DNA of 64,000 nt from NCBI GenBank assembly GCA_051362555.1, contig CM120640.1, forward strand, positions 27,180,503-27,244,502, in the 5' to 3' direction. The position numbers and the translations under genes are program-made. The notes beneath the pieces are model-generated. The model was not told the DNA's origin, made no database searches, and saw only the letters and a list, made by a program, of their open reading frames with translations. Below, piece after piece: positions 7,711 through 19,961 of the stretch. Positions within the stretch are counted from its first letter, which is position 1. Every line of letters begins with the position of its first letter. Origin of the DNA: Lingula anatina (taxonomy: Eukaryota > Animalia > Brachiopoda).

Positions 7711-10700
7711 ATGACAGATGCTGAGTACTCGCCTGTTGCTACTGATTCTCCCACTAAACTGTCAGTCGAAGAAATAGTGAAGATGTCACATACGGCACGG
7801 AAATGGGAGGTGTTCCCAGGGAGGAACAAATTTTGCTGTGACGGAAGGATCATGATGGCCAGACAAGCAGGGATATTTTATTTCACATGCATTCTGATCA
7901 TTGGGACATGTCTGTTGTTCTTTATATTTGAGTAAGTAAACAATGTGTTATGAACTTCAAATCCATATTTTTAAAAGATTTTTTCTATATTGTATTTCTA
8001 GTTAATGTAGTGCTTAATTTGAATGAAATGGGAAGAAGTATATGAATCTGCTTGGCTGATGATTAATTTTGAAGAGTTAGTTTGAAATGGTTTCTCTTTT
8101 GTTTGCCCTGAATTCAGTGAAGAGCAGTATCAGAAATAAAAAAGGGAATATTTTCAGCTTTCTAAATAGAACATATTTATTCAAGCTTCATCTTAGGAAT
8201 CTAAGATAAATAATACTGTGTATCTTATGATAGTGGAATTCATGAATATAACATTGATTATATATTCTTAAAGTATTGAATGATTAAATTCATAGTTGGG
8301 AAGTACTATGTAATTAAGGAAGGTTTGTGTAAGTAAATCACTGGTTAAGCAATTTAGATCAAAATTTTATAAGATCAGATCATGCATTCATACAAGTTGC
8401 AATACAAGGTTACATCATATTTAATTAGATTGAATAATTTTATTTAGATGAACAATGTATACATTCAAGGCTACTGAGTTTATTGTTATGGCAGTTGACT
8501 TGAATTTGAAGTTATTTTCTTTGACATTTGGTTCTTTTTGTCATACTCTGGACTTAGCAAAGCTGATTTCTTCTTTTTCTACTTAAGCATGCTATCTAAC
8601 TATTATCAAATATCAGTCAGGTTATTGAAAATTTAAATCTACCTACTTATTTCCACACAAAAACTTCTTATCGTGTTTATTTTGGTAATTGCTTTCCTGA
8701 GTCATCAGTTGATTGGTTCGTGAATCTAAAAAAAACAATAGAGACAGAATGACTCTATAATATCACATTATAATGAATTTGAACCAGAAATTGAAGCAGA
8801 GTCGGTGGTAGCCCTTTTGTACATTTTATTATGATATTTTCTTGCACAAAGCACCACCTCTTGTATCAAAGCTACTAAACAGCCCATCATTATTATTTAA
8901 CTTTCTCAGTCAAAGTGCAGTTTAAAAAAGGTGCACCATTTTTCAGCTTTTATTATGATATTATGACAAAGAAAGGTGTTTAAAAAATCTCTTTAAATCT
9001 GCACAGTGGTACAAGCAGGTAAATTTCAAGTAAGCCACTGAAAAAATAATAATAAATTGAAAAATGCAAATACTATGGCTAGAAGTTTCCACTGCATTTA
9101 AATTTGTTTCTTCAACCTGGCATATTGGCAAGAGTAGATTAGTCTTTTTCCTATCAACTTTCTCATGAGAATATCAGTGTGAGTTTTGACGTTAATCTTA
9201 CACCTTTATCATCCTCCTCATGCAGATGCATCCAATATCATGTTCCTTATGCTTTGCACGAAGTGTCTAGCCATCATCAGATTTGAAATCTCCTATATCT
9301 TCTGATTGCTCTCTCTAGCAACACAACCAATAGAGTAGAGTGTTCTTCCTGTATACTGAGGAAGATGGTTTGATCCTTGGCCAGTGAAAGTCACCTTCTC
9401 ATTTCTACAATAGTTGAAATTGGTGATACATTATTGAAACATCAGTTTTGATTAATACTTCATAATGATAGCTTGTGCCTCATATAATTAACTTTAGGGA
9501 AAGTGAGCATTGTTTACTGCGTGTTGATGTGGTTTGCATGATTTATCCTTGAATTCATTCATCATGAAGTGGTGCAAGGTTGATGAACACTAAATGGTTT
9601 GATTGTTCAAATACACAACATATCCTGTATTAGTTATTACTCTCTGAAGTTGGTTGGCACTTTTCCTTATGCTAAGTTTTGATAGTAACTTTGGAAACAG
9701 GATGTTGAAGATATGAGAAGCACATTATAGGCATGTTAGAAAGTATGTTTATTTGAATAACTAAAAATGATAAATCTTTTAAAAAATGAAATTTGTGAGA
9801 TGTTTGACATTTGTGAGAAAATTAATTCTCTTACTGTTTTCAATGGTATCTGATCACATGCTCTGGTTTTCCAATGGACATTTATTTACTGTATATTTTG
9901 ATGCTCTCTAAGCTCATGTATGAATTATATAACAGTCCTAATTTCAAAGGTCACTTCCAGAAAACTGACAATCAGAAACTGAATGAAAATGCAAAAATAA
10001 ATTATCATAAATTTCCTTGACAGTAGATTAGTTATATTCTTGCTTGTTGGCCTGAATGTAATATATCAGAAGACTAAAAATAACAAATGTTCATCAACTA
10101 CATTAAAACAAAAAATGGTCTTGAAACTGATCTGTGGTTTTATCTTTACCTCTTCTGTCAGTCATGGCATCTTATTAAGAAAGGGAAGTAAGAGCTGCCA
10201 CTAAGCTGCAGTTAAACCCTGCACCATCTGTTTTACTCAATTTTGTTTTAGAAACAAACTATCTTTGATTCGTAATTGTAATTTGCGGTTATCGAAGTCC
10301 CAGTGGTAGAGATAAAACTTACATATAGGTCATTAGAATGGTTCGGCATCATTTGGTATACAGTCAGTTTTCTTATCTTAAATCTACATTAGTCTGACCA
10401 TTGGTGGATTTAAATGTTTTATGTGTGTGGGATGAGTACATTATAAGGGTTGTATAAAGCCAATAACTGCCTCAAACATTGATCTCAGAAAGAAAAGTTG
10501 TTCTCAAGGCCATGTTTGGTAGAGATTATTTGGGAATATATCAATTTTATTTGATGGGAATATTCATGATTGAAAAAGTGTCCCAAACTGACTTTGACTG
10601 GGTTCCCATACCTACTAGTAGATCGATCTAACAGGATCTATCCATCTCCAAGGGGTTTCTTGCTAAATTGCTTTCAGCTTAAGCAGCTTAGATGTCTGGC

Positions 10701-13072
10701 ACGCCTACTGAAGCTGCTAAGCAATAATTAATTACCCCCTAGCAGCTTCATTAAGCATTACAGACGTCTAAGCTGCTTAAGTAAATTGCAATTTAGTGAG
10801 AATCCCCTTGGAGATAGATCGATCCACAGTTAGTACGATAGGGTCTGGGAATGGTCCCTTGGATCACTTCATGCACCATAGCATATTCTTTGGATTAGAT
10901 TTACATTTACAAAGGGGTTGATACTAGCTTGATAAATATGCAGTACACAAGCACTGTACATAACTACTTTAAATAAACAACAATAAAAATTCATCAGAAA
11001 GTGAAAGTCATATAGAAATTTGATATCAAGTACCAGTTGAAATTATACTTCAAACAAAGTTTTAGTAGATCTATATTTAAAAAGTGCAAGGACGTCCATC
11101 ATGTTTGAGAAGATAAATGTTTTCATTATGGGATAACAGATGACAAGCAAGATGTTACATATTGCACAACTTTCCTACATGATCACTACTGAGCACATTA
11201 AACATATCAATTTTGATTTACTTCTTAAAGGTTTATCTTGATGCATCTATATAATGAATAAAAATTCATAATATTGTAATATCTAAGATATCTGTGAAAA
11301 TGCCTTACTATTGTTTCATATGCATTGCAGATGAGATATGCAACTGTCTATTTGAAAGGGTTAAAATGTTAGGACAAATATATTATTATGTATACCATTT
11401 TCAAGCAGCATCTGTATTGATACAGAATGAGCAGTGCATTAGTCCATTGCAAATACCATTTTGTATGTAGCTTTTTTTTTTTATCCTGTGAGGTCACCTT
11501 GAAGCTCTGGTAAAGAAAGTATTTAGCCCTTTGAAGTCATAATGATTTAAAATCAAACTTTGATGGATATCGTGAAACTATTTACAAAAAAGCATTGCAG
11601 AAATAACATTTGAATGTTAATGCATTAATTTGTGTGTATAAATAATGTATACACATGCACAATATGTAGAAACAGTTACACCATTATGCCAGGCTAACTA
11701 GGTTGTAATTAAGGCCTCTCTCCTGTACTTTCAGTGCAGGCGGAAGTGTGTTGTACATGCTTTCTAACATCTGATGATATATTTTTATTTTAGAATACCA
11801 CAGGTATTTCTGTTTGTCTACTTAGATGCAAGTTGTCTCACATTAGCACAGGGTATTATGTAGATAAGTATAATATAGACACCAGATAGATCAGTTATTG
11901 ATTAAATCATACATAGACTCTGAAACCCATTACCAAGAATGTATTTACCAAATTGGTAAAAATCAAAATTATACCTGGGTAAACAGTTAGGATTTTGGTA
12001 CCTGTGAGCTCCAGCCATTTTATCTTTCTACAGACAGTTGTATATGGTGATGTTAAGCAGTGTTAAAATAAGGAATGACATTGATTGAAATATGTATTGT
12101 AATGATAGACGTGATTATGTAGTAGTCTGCTGGAAATGAAAGGTTGGGTTTCTGTGCACATACCAATTAGCAAGTTCAACTGTTTCTTTTAGATCAGTAA
12201 TTGTGCCTTTGCTTTATATGTTACTCACCAATATGAAATTTACTTAAATACATATTTCTACTACTGCTTTAAAGAATGTAGCACACTACTAGATTTTTAC
12301 CAGGTTGTGAAACCTTTAAGATGTCAAAAAATTATAAATATATATCATGAAATGAATAAAATTTTAATACTTAATAATTTTGCATGTAAAAACAGATTTT
12401 TAAATACAATTCAAAATTATAATTTCTTGTTAATTCAGGAATGTGGAAGGTTAAAAAAATTTTCAGGTTTTTAAGAAAATGCTGAATTACTTGTACAGCT
12501 TGAAATATTGCTTCTTACACTTCTGGATGTTGTTAAATTGCAAATCAATACAAGAACGTGCTGCAGTATTATGTGTACTTGCTCTGTGTAATAGTATGAT
12601 TCACACCAGGCTTGGGTCACCATATGACTGATGACTTAGGAGCTAAAGTATTGAAGAATTTGTTTGATACCTTAATTTTATTTCCTTGCATTTATCATAG
12701 GGTGGCAATTTTTATATTGGGGTTTCATATTTTGGTACATATTTCTTAGAATGGTAGAGTGGCTTTCATGATATTTTGAAGATATTTATACCATTGAAAG
12801 TAAGATTGATGAAATGTGTTTAAAACTGAAGCAAATAATATGTCTTAACAATGATCTTTGCAATAAGTTTTGACCTTTGCTTTGCAATATTCTTTTGTAG
12901 AAATGATTCATTTGGAGAAAATATATGAGGAAAGATCATAACATTAAAGGATTATTCATCCCTCCACTGTGAGATACAAAACTATTTTGAAAAAAAGGTT
13001 TTTGTCTGAATTATGCATTCCTTTACCATACTGGATCAATTTATCAAAAGAATACTGCAAATTGAATATGTG

Positions 13073-13113
<41 letters not shown>

Positions 13114-13681
13114 GGAAAAGTTTTAAAAGAATTTTGAAGGAAAATAACGGTACCTCATGTAAAATTACTAGTATGTCGTCCTCATCCTTCCATTTCCAAG
13201 GAAGTCATGTATTTGTGGCCAATGCCATAACAAGGGAAATGAAATGAATTGTTTATTGACTCTGTAAGAGTACACAAAATAACCTGATTTATAAAAAAAA
13301 AAACCTGATTACTGAAATTTGAGGTTTCTTTGGAAAAGACTGCATCATGATCAATAACTAAGATTACTGTTTTAATAGATCTTGTTTCCTTTTTCCTTTT
13401 CATTCCTCTCTTTTCTTGTCAGGTTGTAATGGCACAAATAGAAAGGGATGTGCTAACCAATTAGTAAGCAGGGCTTTCTAGTACACTAACTGAAAAATGT
13501 GCGTCTAGGGCAGCACTCTGGGGACCTTGTAGCACTAAGACTGAATTAAATCTTTATGAATCACCCTTGTATTGGGCCAGGCCAGGAAATTGTATTTATT
13601 GATGCCAATATTTTATGGAAGAACAAGAGTAATTCTTATGAATTAGTCCCTAAATGATGTTTTGGTGTTTTGTTTTTTATT

Positions 13682-13741
<60 letters not shown>

Positions 13742-16691
13742 TCAAGATTTCTTAAGTGATGACAGTTATTTTTTAATTAACACAGAAATGATATTTAGTT
13801 TTTTTCTCTCTCTTTCAAGTTGCAGATATTTTGTCGAGACGTATCCTTCATTTGGGTTTGTTGTCCCTTTGGCTGCAGGGCTGTTGTTCATCTTTGTTTT
13901 ATCCACGCTTTTCCGCACAAGCTTCAGTGACCCTGGGGTGATCCCCAGGTCAACACCTGATGAGGCCGCAGATCTGGAGAGACAAATAGGTAAGTTCCTA
14001 CTACCCTTGGATCTGTTTTACAAAGGTTCTAGAGGTGAAGATAAATCTAACCAAACTGTAGACCAAAAGAAGTTTACCATGAATTTCTAGGCTCGTTTAC
14101 GTAATTTCTTGAAAGTAAGGCTCAACACCCATTGTAGAATTGCTATGATATTTGTTTTCCTCACAGTGGGGAGGGTTGCTTTTTAAGCTTTGTCAACTGA
14201 AATTTATTATGAGCCAGTTGTTCATGTTACTTTCCAAGTCATATTATTAGCAGGTCAAGTTAAAGTCTGTGAACACATGCTTATGAGGTCAGAAAAATTA
14301 AGCTGTGTTGGGGAGAGGGGAATAGAATGAGGGATGATGCTGAAAGATGAAAACATTGATTGAAGAAAATTTAACCTGGTCATAGCAATATTAATTAAAT
14401 GTGTTGCATATCATCTGTTACATGTCTTAGAGATTTTCAACTCATAGGATCAGCTATGTTTCTGTCTTCAATGTTGCAGAGGTTCCAAGTTCATGCCAGC
14501 CGAATTATAGACCTCCTCCAAGAGTCAGAGAAGTTATTATTAAAGGGCAGAAGGTTAAGCTGAAGTTTTGTTATACCTGCAAAATCTTTAGGCCTCCCAG
14601 GGCATCACATTGTAGTGTCTGTGATAATTGCGTAGGTAAGTAAAAAAGACAATTTAACTTTCATTTTACAGTGCACCCAGTTTGATAATTGATCTGATAT
14701 TAAGCACAAAAAAAAAAAAACGTTGGAAAAATGGATTTAAATTATGCCCTCAGTATTAGGTGCCACAGCTCAATTCAAGTGAATTTTTATTAAATGTTGA
14801 ACTTTATCCATGATACATTTGATACAGTTGTTGCAGAAGCTTAGGTATATTTTCTCACTTTCCTTTTGTGCACTTCCTGTAATTTCTTCTTTTTTTAGAT
14901 CTGATTTCATAAAATCTCCAATGTAAGGGACATATGCTTCCACAAAATAGTTAAATGTGTGTAGTAAATGTAATAACAGCAGAGAAGGTATAAGTTGCTG
15001 TTAATTGTGTAGTAAGTCATTGACCTGAATATACTCATATATATGTATATAGCTCTTTAAGTAATACAGGATCTGGCTTCTTTGTGAAATATTCAAACTA
15101 GACAGGGGTAGGGCTGTGGTAGGGTAAAGCATTACCAGAAACTGTATTCAACTGACATAAAGTTAAGTCTTAGGACTTAAAGAGTGAAAGTCTTAAGACT
15201 TAAAGAGTGACATTGAGAACACTACAGTGATAAATCAGAAATAAGCAATTATTTTTTTTATTGTGTATATTGTGGTAAATTGATGTGAATATGATCTTTA
15301 CAGATCATATAAAATGAATTTTTGTGATAAATCTTTGTAAATGCACATTTCTGAATACCCTTATAGCAGCGCCTCTGTAAAGAGGTTCATACGCTTTATA
15401 ATCAATAAGCTCCCATGTTTTTGATAATCTTAGCCGTTGATTGAAGAAGCTATAAAAGTAATTGATATAAGTGACTATTCTGCTCATATTAGGATGTCTC
15501 ACAGTTATTTTTCTTTCTATACACAACATTCATGTTTTTGTTGAGGTTTGTTTTTGTCTCCATTTCAGAACGTTTCGACCACCATTGCCCGTGGGTGGGG
15601 AATTGTGTTGGGAAGCGTAACTACAGATATTTTTATCTCTTCATCATGTCATTGTCTGTCCTCTGTCTCTTCATATTTGCTGTGGTGGTAACACACTTAG
15701 TATTAAGTAAGTATAAAACATGGTTTTGTCTTTCAGAGTAATTTTCAGATAAATTGATCAGTACATGTTAGTACTGTTTTGTAGCTAAGATGAATTATCT
15801 GGTGACACCTTACAAGAAATACTGTCATGTCAAATCATTGTGATAATTACTTCACCAACCAGTTGTTCTTTGCAAATAAGGTGCACTTTATATAGCTTGA
15901 AAATATAAATCCCAAATGATCTCAATTATACTATATGAAACTGTTATTTGTTGCATTTGAAATATCTGAGATATTGAGACAAGGCAGATTCATCTGCTTT
16001 CCCTTTGTTTAAACAATGCAAACTCATTTATTTCATTATCATGAATCATTATTTGTTCTCTTTTTCAGGAACTCAACAAACTGGTCAGTTTCTTATTGCT
16101 CTACGGGACTCCCCAGTTAGATATCCTTGCAATGTGTTTAGCAGTTCATTCATTAATAAAACCTTGCTCAGTGTTATTGTAATTGGAGGAAACACATTTA
16201 GGGGCAAAATGCATTAAGGGGGTGGAACTTAGAAAATGTCAGGGATGTTCAAAATCTGTTCAAATTGTTGGAAATGTCTTGTATGTCTGTTTGTGCCTTA
16301 ACATAGGTCACTATTGTGGAGGCCCTCATATGCTTCTTTTCTATTTGGTCCCTCATTGGACTTGGGGGATACCATACATATCTGACAGCCACAGGGCAGT
16401 CCACTAATGAAGACGTGAGTTCAATAAAATGCCTATATCTCTGTGCTTTTCTGTCTTTTTGTTTAAACATATCTTAACACATTGATTTGAAATCATGGAA
16501 ATAATATCACAGTCAGTGGTATGTCAGGGCAGGATTACAATAAATGAAAAGGACGACAAGTTTGACTGATTTGACCTTTATCATGAATGCAGAATGTGAA
16601 TTCAATCCAAAGCTGGTGAAAACAATGTCTAATAGTCTGGCAGATGGATTTTACCAAATTTAGGACAATTCTAAACACATGGTCCACTCCT

Positions 16692-16725
<34 letters not shown>

Positions 16726-18579
16726 TAGTTGATGTACATGTAATTCTTTATTAGAGAATGCTAGCAGCCTGCTTTTGCTGGTAGCAGCACAAGCAATTGA
16801 GTGGTCTTGATGGCAGCAGGGAGAGCATTAGTTTTCATCTTTGCTGCCTTTCCTAAATCAATACCTACAGGATTTCTGCTTTGGATGTTGTTGTTGTTGT
16901 TTTTTCTTTTTGATTTTCATCCTTTTTGTGTGGAACAATCACCAGTTCATTTAGATTTATGTTTTTATTTCTAGTTAATCACATTTAAGTACATTATACC
17001 TCTCCTTAACTTGGTCCCACCATTATAGAAGCAGTAGTTTGTTTTTTCTCTGTGTGGTCCATTCTTGGCTTGGCAGGTTTTCATACTTATCTCGTGTCAT
17101 CTAATCAAACAACTAATGAAGATGTAAGTATAAGTGTAGCCTTTGTTCACCAAAGTTTTAATAAGCATGAATCGTTGTAAATGCATTTCACATGATGTTT
17201 ATCTTCCTATTTCATTTGATTTGTTTATATTTGATTGGTTTGATTTGATTTTGTAAATGTCTGGTATATGAATTATACTTTTGTTATCAGAATATTTTAG
17301 GTTGTAAGTGTAATTTCATTCTTTATATTGCATGGAGGAAAATATGGAGAACTTGAAATAATTTTTTTCTAAATGTAGTTAAAATACTTGGGAGGGTTGG
17401 TTTCATTGATAGTTCTTTTCTAAATGTGCAAATTCTTGGCATTGATCAAAATATAGCAAATGATAATATTGCTATCCTACTCTTTTTTCTTTCAGATCAA
17501 GGGATCATTTTCATCAAAAAGGGCTCAAGATAATTTCAACCCTTTCAGTCAGGGTTCCTGTATAGGGAATTGCTGTGAAATCATATGTGGCCCAGAATAC
17601 CCCAGGTTAGTAATAAGCCCTGGCGTCTGTTAGAATTATTGGTGGAGGAAGACCTATTGAAGACCGACTGGAATTTCCTTTTATTGCTATTCGTTTGTCT
17701 GTCATTTTTAAATGTCAGTGATTATTGCATTGGGAAACTGTGAGAGATTTGATGCTGTATATTAAAAATAAGACGTTTGAAAGAAAGAAAAAAAAACTGG
17801 CCACAGGTAAAAATGTCATTATGAGAAGCCACATGTTTTTGAAATCGGACTTTTTTTTTTCATGAAATTGATTGCAGCTTACTAGACAGAAGGGGCTTTG
17901 TGGTGCCAGATGAGACACCAGTCCAAATGTCACAGCCATCTGACATGTATCACAACCAATCTCCTAAAGAAAGGAATGCTGTCAATGTGAGGCATGAAAG
18001 CTATGGAAGCACTGTGGATTCACATGCACAGGTAGCAGCTGTCAAGTTTAGCCACGAACAAGTGAGATTATTGGGTCTTTTTTTCAGTGCATCATGACAT
18101 CATTTATTTGGATCTTTTCTTTCTATTTTTTTTTTTTTTTCTATTGGTATTTTAACCATACTATTAGCATTAGAATTCAAACAAACAGGAGTATGTATTG
18201 CTTAACGAGGATCACTAATTGCAGTGGCTTGAGTGTAATGTTGAATGTTACTTCTTCATCCATTGTGGTATAAATTCTTGGAATTTATATTTGCTCATTA
18301 TGATTTCAGCCTCAAAAGAATTATTCCAATCAGAATGACTACGTAGTACCACCAAGTGCCCTTTCTTCAGAAAACTCGATGCCCAATAACAGACTTCCAC
18401 CAATAAGAGGTAAAGGCAGAATTTTTTAATGAAAATATTTTAAATTTTTTCACAAAATTTGTTAAGTTAACTTTTAAATTATGAATTTATATTTTGTTGA
18501 CTTAACATGATTGATATTATGCAGCCTTTAGATAGTAATCATGTAACAGTAGATCTGTTTTATTTCTGTAGCAGATTAA
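7711..18579 (+). CDS. ZDHHC14: Palmitoyltransferase of the ZDHHC9/14/18 (Drosophila approximated, yeast Erf2) family, multi-exon, alternatively spliced
   Basis: Exons 7711-7931, 13820-13989, 14480-14635, 15569-15706, 16069-16120, [16312-16414 or 17021-17123], 17496-17605, 17878-18031/18061, 18310-18409, then one of several possible last exons (nearest stop at 18579). Motifs '[17 protein letters not shown]', '[11 protein letters not shown]', '[48 protein letters not shown]', 'TTNEDIKGSFS', 'NPFSQG'. Assignment among 9/14/18 is approximate. Confidence 0.93.
10603..10850. mobile_element. Hairpin (foldback) MITE, copy 1, in a ZDHHC intron
   Basis: Long imperfect palindrome: ATCTCCAAGGGG/CCCCTTGGAGAT, CTTAAGCAGCTTAGA/TCTAAGCTGCTTAAG, GAAGCTGCTA/TAGCAGCTTC, termini TTCCCA..TGGGAA; related to 22751-22952. 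Confidence 0.8.
13069..13113. repeat. (TG)n microsatellite
   Basis: Direct reading; one interruption. Confidence 0.95.
13692..13741. repeat. (GATA)n microsatellite
   Basis: About 12 TAGA units. Confidence 0.95.
16121..17020 (+). other. U12-type AT-AC intron with two alternative U12 acceptors (AC at 16310-16311 and 17019-17020)
   Basis: Donor ATATCCTTGC at 16121 falls exactly where ZDHHC homology breaks. Branch GCCTTAAC (16295-16302) is followed by ataggtcAC; branch TCCTTAAC (17003-17010) is followed by ttggtcccAC. Both restore the reading frame (phase 2). Confidence 0.93.
16312..16414 (+). CDS. ZDHHC mutually exclusive exon A (TM4 + STNE variant)
   Basis: 103 nt, open frame (S)[36 protein letters not shown] acceptor, GTGAGT donor. 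Confidence 0.88.
17021..17123 (+). CDS. ZDHHC mutually exclusive exon B (TM4 + canonical TTNE)
   Basis: 103 nt, open frame (S)[36 protein letters not shown] acceptor, GTAAGT donor. Confidence 0.92.
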
Positions 18580-19911: not shown

Positions 19912-19961
19912 GTGGTTCTCTGCATTCCTATCAAACTCTTCCTACACCTACATCACCATGA
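19912..19961 (+). CDS. Candidate alternative coding 3' exon of the ZDHHC gene
   Basis: Acceptor ctcctgttttcAG, phase-1 compatible, (G)GSLHSYQTLPTPTSP*; donor-like GGTAAGT at 19985. Confidence 0.45.

Follow-up and report, generated by a model that had tools for sequence, protein, structure and literature searches.

Results

The 64,000-nt stretch of Lingula anatina DNA analysed here, called the window below, holds a palmitoyltransferase gene of the ZDHHC9/14/18 (app) family, identified by sequence, translation and protein matches. Our subject is a pair of tandem homologous exons in this gene, A and B, which share one upstream U12-type donor (Table 1). The exon pair is real, expressed and old. 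The gene product has a DHHC domain, four membrane helices, a TTxE motif and ZDHHC9 as its best match, and its closest solved relative is human ZDHHC9 (PDB 8HF3, E 2.5e-130), in which the A/B segment corresponds to chain residues 226-259. A query of 40 residues taken at exon A gave matches to Lingula anatina proteins with 100% and 97% identity. Both isoforms are already annotated in RefSeq: XP_013398674 (X2) contains exon A, as residues 247-280, and XP_013398673 (X1) contains exon B. In an alignment-based model the fourth long helix spans residues 244-272, and block pLDDT (predicted local distance difference test) values are 88 and 82 over residues 241-260; this fold is reliable for the membrane helices only, and a single-sequence fold was poor (pLDDT 46). 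As this helix overlaps the A/B segment, the alternative exon encodes it together with the TTxE motif.

Table 1. Coordinates in the window of the ZDHHC9/14/18 gene and of the splice elements around exons A and B
Feature	Position	Strand	Evidence
ZDHHC9/14/18 (app) gene	7711..18410	+	translation; RefSeq XP_013398673/4 matches; Pfam DHHC PF01529
Coding exons	7711-7931, 13820-13989, 14480-14635, 15569-15706, 16069-16120, A or B, 17496-17605, 17878-18031/18061, 18310-18410	+	
Constitutive upstream exon, 52 nt, phase 2 end inside a Ser codon	16069..16120	+	junction 15706^16069 in RNA
Single U12-type AT donor ATATCCTT, common to both alternative introns	16121..16128	+	motif; AT..AC RNA joints
U12 branch site GCCTTAAC (one mismatch to TCCTTRAC) and AC acceptor of exon A	16295..16311	+	202 junction reads
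Exon A, 103 nt, derived copy; fourth membrane helix and STNE form of TTxE	16312..16414	+	sequence, RNA
Hybrid intron, 606 nt: U2 donor GTGAGT, U12 branch site, AC end	16415..17020	+	sequence
U12 branch site TCCTTAAC (consensus) and AC acceptor of exon B	17003..17020	+	169 junction reads
Exon B, 103 nt, ancestral-like copy with TTNE; then U2 donor GTAAGT	17021..17123	+	sequence, RNA
U2-type acceptor: 16/17 pyrimidines, CAG; closest U12 branch-like sequence differs at 3 positions	17476..17495	+	sequence
Constitutive downstream exon, phase 0	17496..17605	+	sequence, RNA

An earlier reading of the bare sequence (the original prediction) had described this arrangement. All of its coordinates, the 103-nt lengths, the shared U12 donor, the branch sites, the AC ends, the GTGAGT and GTAAGT donors and the AG at 17495 were confirmed in the sequence, as were the GT..AC hybrid intron between the exons and the AT..AG pairing that skipping both would require. 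The heptamer CCTTAAC occurs at 16296 and 17004, and the AC ends lie 9 nt and 10 nt further on, respectively. The exons are adjacent, have the same length and run from phase 2 to phase 0, as expected of a tandem duplication, and are identical at 62/103 nucleotides and 21/34 amino acids. With A alone or B alone the frame is open through exon 18310-18410, and the isoforms differ at 13 of 34 residues. Frameshifting upon inclusion or omission of both exons, also foreseen, is borne out by the translation: with codons counted from the ATG at 7783, the A+B product meets a stop at codon 284 and the skip-both product at codon 245. These premature stops lie 325-414 nt before the end of the exon that closes at 18410.

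The U12 motifs are not enriched in the window (RTATCCTT, 7 found versus 5.15 expected; CCTTAAC, 4 versus 7.24); the U12 assignment rests on motif placement and on the use of the AT..AC ends in RNA. Two of the four CCTTAAC copies sit immediately 5' of the two homologous exons, and among the gene's introns a branch site with at most one mismatch to TCCTTRAC is present only before A and B, the others having 2-3 mismatches. An RTATCCTT donor, a CCTTRAC branch site near an AC end and the use of both ends in RNA, by which U12-type AT-AC introns are recognised, are all present. A U12-donor-like match inside a coding exon (GTATCCTT at 13841) was taken as chance. Lingula is reported to be rich in minor introns (accessible part of PMC10639083).

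Splice junctions were read from eight of the nine listed same-species raw-read runs, from three studies and mostly of the poly(A) type, aligned to 15500-18450 (X6 was excluded); a junction was listed if supported by 3 reads at 2 starts. RNA junctions support the gene structure from 15706 onward. The AT..AC junction into exon A, 16120^16312, was found in 8/8 runs (59, 4, 4, 48, 62, 8, 10 and 7 reads; total 202), and so was the AT..AC junction into exon B, 16120^17021 (40, 2, 10, 51, 46, 4, 11 and 5 reads; total 169). Exit from A (16414^17496) was covered by 112 reads in 8/8 runs and exit from B (17123^17496) by 156 reads in 7/8 runs, with none in X5. Neither the A+B junction 16414^17021 nor the skip-both junction 16120^17496 rose above the listing threshold in the eight runs, which yielded 639 cluster junction reads, and no joints were listed in these runs at the cryptic AG sites 16305, 16973 and 16988. 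The four expected junctions, including those into and out of exon A, and the lack of listed, let alone frequent, A+B co-inclusion agree with the original prediction. Exon A accounts for 54% of entry reads and 42% of exit reads, that is, for about half. By study its pooled share is 0.49, 0.76 and 0.42 (chi-square p 0.004, from low counts and non-independent reads without tissue labels), which is a weak hint at regulation. The intron after exon A shows low read depth in run X4.

The two exons differ at a saturated proportion of synonymous sites (pS 0.875) and at far fewer nonsynonymous ones (pN 0.23); third codon positions agree in 10/34 codons and second positions in 30/34. Since synonymous sites are saturated, the duplicate pair is old. 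The introns flanking A and B align no better than shuffled sequences.

Comparison with other loci marks the U12 intron as ancestral. In supplement rows of PMC6717393, human and mouse ZDHHC9, 14 and 18 are tabulated with ATATCCT donors, so that all three human genes of this orthologous family, which also includes fly app, have an AT-type U12 intron. A pattern scan of metagenomes gave 34 stretches in 32 loci, with a true exon in 26 loci at 28 sites; six loci (L003, L004, L012, L015, L024 and L026) were discarded as chance matches. Of the true sites, 27/28 end in AC and one in AG with a GT-type U12 donor, GTATCCTT; because the scan pattern required the branch site, these counts show presence, not frequency. 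At L005:934-1081 (minus-strand orientation), a single-copy locus, the orthologous intron is now of the GT-AG U12 subtype. The peptides of L017 and L022 are identical to that of human ZDHHC14, and 12 loci, several of them redundant, cover the region from the donor to the next exon with a single copy. Many fly-like or arthropod-like single open reading frames (ORFs; Logan P0003-P0073) read straight across the U12 position, which suggests that such lineages lost this intron.

Duplicated versions were also met in the metagenomes. L008 and L009 hold two copies each, with CCTTRAC..AC before and GTRAGT after them and no other exon match between, and L014 holds a partial first and a whole second copy; all three contigs end short of the flanking exons. 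The upstream-copy peptide of L008 and L009 equals one from Mya and Dreissena, and therefore these contigs are probably bivalve. A G precedes CCTT in 3/3 upstream copies (window, L008, L009) versus 1/15 other distinct exon peptides (Fisher p 0.005, with non-independent rows and a pattern noticed post hoc). Sites of the type GCCTTAAC score below those of the type TCCTTAAC, for example 80 versus 93, in the accessible part of the Olthof supplement table.

Among named proteins, 51 species labels carry the segment and 27 have at least two proteins; the survey is a partial sample of gene models at the protein level. Two or three versions of the segment occur in 16/22 lophotrochozoan labels with at least two proteins versus 0/5 outside, and the versions differ within the 34-residue segment between the same flanking residues. 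Two versions were seen in Lingula, the nemertean Lineus, a chiton, Octopus sinensis, three Haliotis labels (one pooling two species), Pomacea, Babylonia, Ostrea, Magallana, Mya and Mytilus trossulus, and three in each of Mytilus edulis, Mizuhopecten and Argopecten. The six lophotrochozoan labels with one version are Patella vulgata, P. caerulea, Pecten, Aplysia, Gigantopelta and Mytilus californianus, and the five outside labels, all with one, are Priapulus, Myxine, Stegodyphus, human ZDHHC14 and Anastrepha. The sole named annelid had one protein. All vertebrate and fly proteins retrieved show one segment version each, in a search that favoured close matches. The original prediction took the event for an independent case in a palmitoyltransferase; the gene family was correct, and the versions extend far beyond one species. 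Its tentative suggestion of a related event in fly approximated (app), homology being left unconfirmed there, found no support in three single-version Anastrepha app proteins or in the fly-like ORFs that cross the U12 position, Drosophila itself lying outside the sample.

Searches with exon A found no close copy outside Lingula; the nemertean variant emerged only through cluster members. The Lineus alternative ends in ATGISTNED and Lingula A in ATGQSTNED. Position 28 is E, Q or D in 30/30 mollusc rows and N in 17/20 others, and G28 occurs in just two of these 20 non-mollusc rows, Lingula A and the Lineus alternative, both of which are long branches. P0338 (Lineus longissimus X2) and P0387 (Argopecten X3) are strongly diverged alternative versions, and P0338 is without the otherwise near-invariant CFFS.WS core, with length and STNED kept. 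The exon tree had 50 rows and 34 columns, and three of its 47 inner branches were starred; an odd Mya model (P0410) was left out of it, and a partial Ruditapes protein without the segment was also omitted. Approximately unbiased (AU) tests on this tree rejected no constrained topology: those uniting Lingula A with Lineus X2 (p 0.61) or the mollusc copies as a whole (p 0.83) both scored above the free tree, and lower values were obtained for Lingula A+B (p 0.075), Lineus X1+X2 (p 0.115) and upstream-type copies across phyla (p 0.20). The residue pattern speaks for two duplications, of which one fell in a brachiopod-nemertean ancestor and one in molluscs, and on this sequence evidence we lean slightly towards two or more origins.

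Discussion

The tandem ZDHHC exons are used singly, through AT-AC junctions from the shared donor, and they probably exclude each other because the minor and the major spliceosome cannot pair the sites of the forbidden joints. The exon would have been duplicated together with the U12 acceptor before it and the U2 donor after it, as a result of which the inner intron became GT..AC and the skip-both intron AT..AG, neither of them expected to be a substrate for one spliceosome. The U11-bound donor would then pick between two U12 branch sites, a weakened proximal site would offset the positional advantage of exon A, and nonsense-mediated decay (NMD) would remove any A+B or skip-both product that leaks through. 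Minigenes of JNK2 are an experimental precedent for the incompatibility principle (PMC1874599, in part). Of the original claim of spliceosome incompatibility, the use of one copy per mRNA stands as an RNA result; for its cause we infer U2/U12 incompatibility from the JNK2 work, and the forbidden products are also of the NMD type.

Several points weigh against this interpretation. Only 6-30% of each run was sampled, and a single study supplied all of the deep runs. As listing needs 3 reads at 2 starts, up to two unlisted reads per run could be hidden, in the worst case amounting to 12.5% of A-exit reads for A+B and 4.1% of exon-5-exit reads for skip-both. Steady-state RNA cannot separate incompatibility from NMD, because both forbidden products carry premature stops. 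The barrier between U2 and U12 sites is not absolute either, given that the U12 acceptor of MAPK12 is used by the U2 machinery when the minor spliceosome is impaired (PMC8329584, in part). More reads enter A than leave it (202 versus 112); the gap may be a mapping effect of near-identical exon ends or may reflect retention after A, where X4 has intronic depth. Finally, the weaker branch site does not yield the rarer isoform. The original prediction was right that GCCTTAAC is weaker than TCCTTAAC, but since exon A is not the minor isoform, branch-site strength alone does not choose the winner. With A used about half the time, the weak proximal site probably balances the choice rather than loses it.

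The strongest competing explanation is that A+B and skip-both products are made at appreciable rates and cleared by NMD, the U12 intron being incidental to exclusivity. The exon length fits this, as 103 is not a multiple of 3 and both stops lie well before later junctions; such lengths occur in 60% of human clusters (Hatje 2017), and the mostly poly(A)-type libraries also fit. However, NMD could only act after GT..AC or AT..AG splicing, and the downstream acceptor is without a U12 branch site. NMD usually leaves residual reads, yet no forbidden joint is listed among the cluster junction reads. We consider this explanation unlikely.

It is less likely still that exon A, although spliced, is a duplicate in decay or close to neutral and has no distinct role. 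Exon B is close to the family consensus, and A carries L14, G18 and S30, found in 0/125 distinct homologous stretches, and has the second-longest terminal branch of the exon tree (0.81). A second Lingula RefSeq locus, XP_013390812 (303 aa), terminates by read-through from exon A into the intron (window 16415-16474), which would also fit decay; it is probably an assembly duplicate or an incomplete model. Against decay, the frame of A is open, about half of the reads include it, and its replacement sites are conserved relative to the saturated synonymous ones. S30 turns TTNE into STNE, but the second Thr and the Glu of TTxE, which contact the DHHC domain (PMC8059564, in part), are retained, and therefore isoform A is likely to be enzymatically active. 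The nemertean ending also resembles that of A. Both enzymes are predicted to be active and to differ in acyl-chain, substrate or partner preference. A role of the A/B swap in acyl selectivity is a prediction, as the known chain-length residues lie in helices 1 and 3 (same source, in part).

Competing RNA pairings of the docker/selector type or steric hindrance are the least probable causes of exclusivity: a 12-nt pair of 92% complementarity (16130-16141 with 16473-16484) could loop out exon A, but it is one of just 2 inverted 12-nt pairs in 1537 bases (a count without shuffle control), no docker is common to two selectors, and roughly 590 nt separate the A donor from the B branch site, far more than the steric range of <50 nt in Hatje 2017. 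This inverted pair flanks A, begins 10 nt into the U12 intron and is probably a chance match.

Incompatibility of spliceosomes is a textbook route to mutual exclusivity for which few cases have been described, accounting for 5/629 human clusters (Hatje 2017; six in the preprint); those we found are vertebrate and GT-type. Like the Lingula pair, exons 6a/6b of JNK (MAPK8/9/10) are tandem homologous exons with an unspliceable U2/U12 hybrid intron and one copy per mRNA (PMC1874599, PMC8329584 and PMC3584512, all in part). In JNK the hybrid combines a U12 donor with a U2 acceptor, and competition involves a pair of U2 acceptors and a pair of U12 donors, whereas the Lingula hybrid is the mirror image, running from a U2 donor to a U12 acceptor with two U12 branch sites competing for one donor. 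In addition, the JNK U12 donor is GT-type and the exons are 72 nt long and in frame. The JNK precedent invoked by the original prediction holds in principle and not in orientation, and MAPK14 is probably closer. Exons 11/11a of TMEM87A/B are likewise mutually exclusive at a minor intron, with no reads joining them, but have the JNK-like orientation, are 72-nt in-frame exons and are vertebrate and tissue-specific (PMC6717393, in part). MAPK14 (p38 alpha) has an annotated homologous 80-nt pair, frame 1-0, with a length not divisible by 3 (Hatje supplement). The accessible rows of the Olthof supplement give its minor-intron donor as ACC|GTATCCTTT and show high CAT4 (downstream exon skipped) and CAT9 (exon inside intron) in mouse. 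From these rows, the MAPK14 pair probably follows the minor-intron donor, the same orientation as in Lingula; it differs in its GT-type U12 donor and in belonging to an unrelated gene. No text in the literature found calls the MAPK14 pair incompatibility-locked, the Hatje 2017 list naming the five cases lying outside its coverage.

We found no paper on the ZDHHC exon event in a literature search mostly without subscription papers: 'ZDHHC' is absent from the main text of PMC5740500, PMC10853781, PMC10639083, PMC6717393, PMC9741552 and PMC11347168, and the accessible parts of PMC3557258, PMC3342872 and PMC8883539 hold nothing decisive on it. The mechanism itself is known from JNK, TMEM87 and probably MAPK14; new are the AT-AC ends, the versions in three invertebrate phyla and the three-way versions. 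The case is wider than first thought yet less unprecedented. As an RNA-confirmed AT-AC pair, it offers a compact natural test of acceptor choice by the minor spliceosome. Moreover, in the Ras-palmitoylating ZDHHC9/14/18 family it is a helix of the acyl-chain cavity that is swapped, which provides natural variants for structure-function work.

That versions occur in three phyla, and as many as three of them in some bivalve genes, suggests that the mechanism scales beyond pairs, and exon locking may help explain why the minor intron was retained. More speculatively, an exon behind a minor intron could be a self-locking, expandable cassette at any copy number, each new duplicate being exclusive as soon as it arises. 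The ZDHHC exon would then have been duplicated repeatedly (in brachiopods and nemerteans with ATGxSTNED, in molluscs, and to three copies in mussels and scallops), the proximal branch site would have been weakened each time, and minor-spliceosome activity would set the fourth helix. We regard this extension as doubtful. If true, it would mean that spliceosome incompatibility locks a three-way array and, from the general age of these phyla, that a cassette switch has been kept for >500 million years. According to a reviewer comment on Hatje 2017 (seen in part), incompatibility explains pairs only, a statement that bivalve genes with three versions would put to the test.

Some further observations concern the vertebrate orthologues and the end of the Lingula gene. 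In the accessible part of supplement file 6 of PMC6717393, the mouse Zdhhc14 minor intron has CAT9 0.95 and CAT4 0.80 in tissue column ten (testis, if the columns are ordered as in other sheets), column eleven giving 0.32/0.26, and the human ZDHHC18 minor intron has 0.16/0.15 in the first. Values of this kind mark an alternative exon lying within the minor intron of vertebrates, which would be a candidate homologue of the Lingula exon. The Lingula gene runs on past 18410 into alternative last exons, and loose read ends beyond this point match two of them, near 19915 and 23142. Just upstream, donors 18031 and 18061, 30 nt apart, are both spliced to 18310 (RefSeq X3 versus X1).

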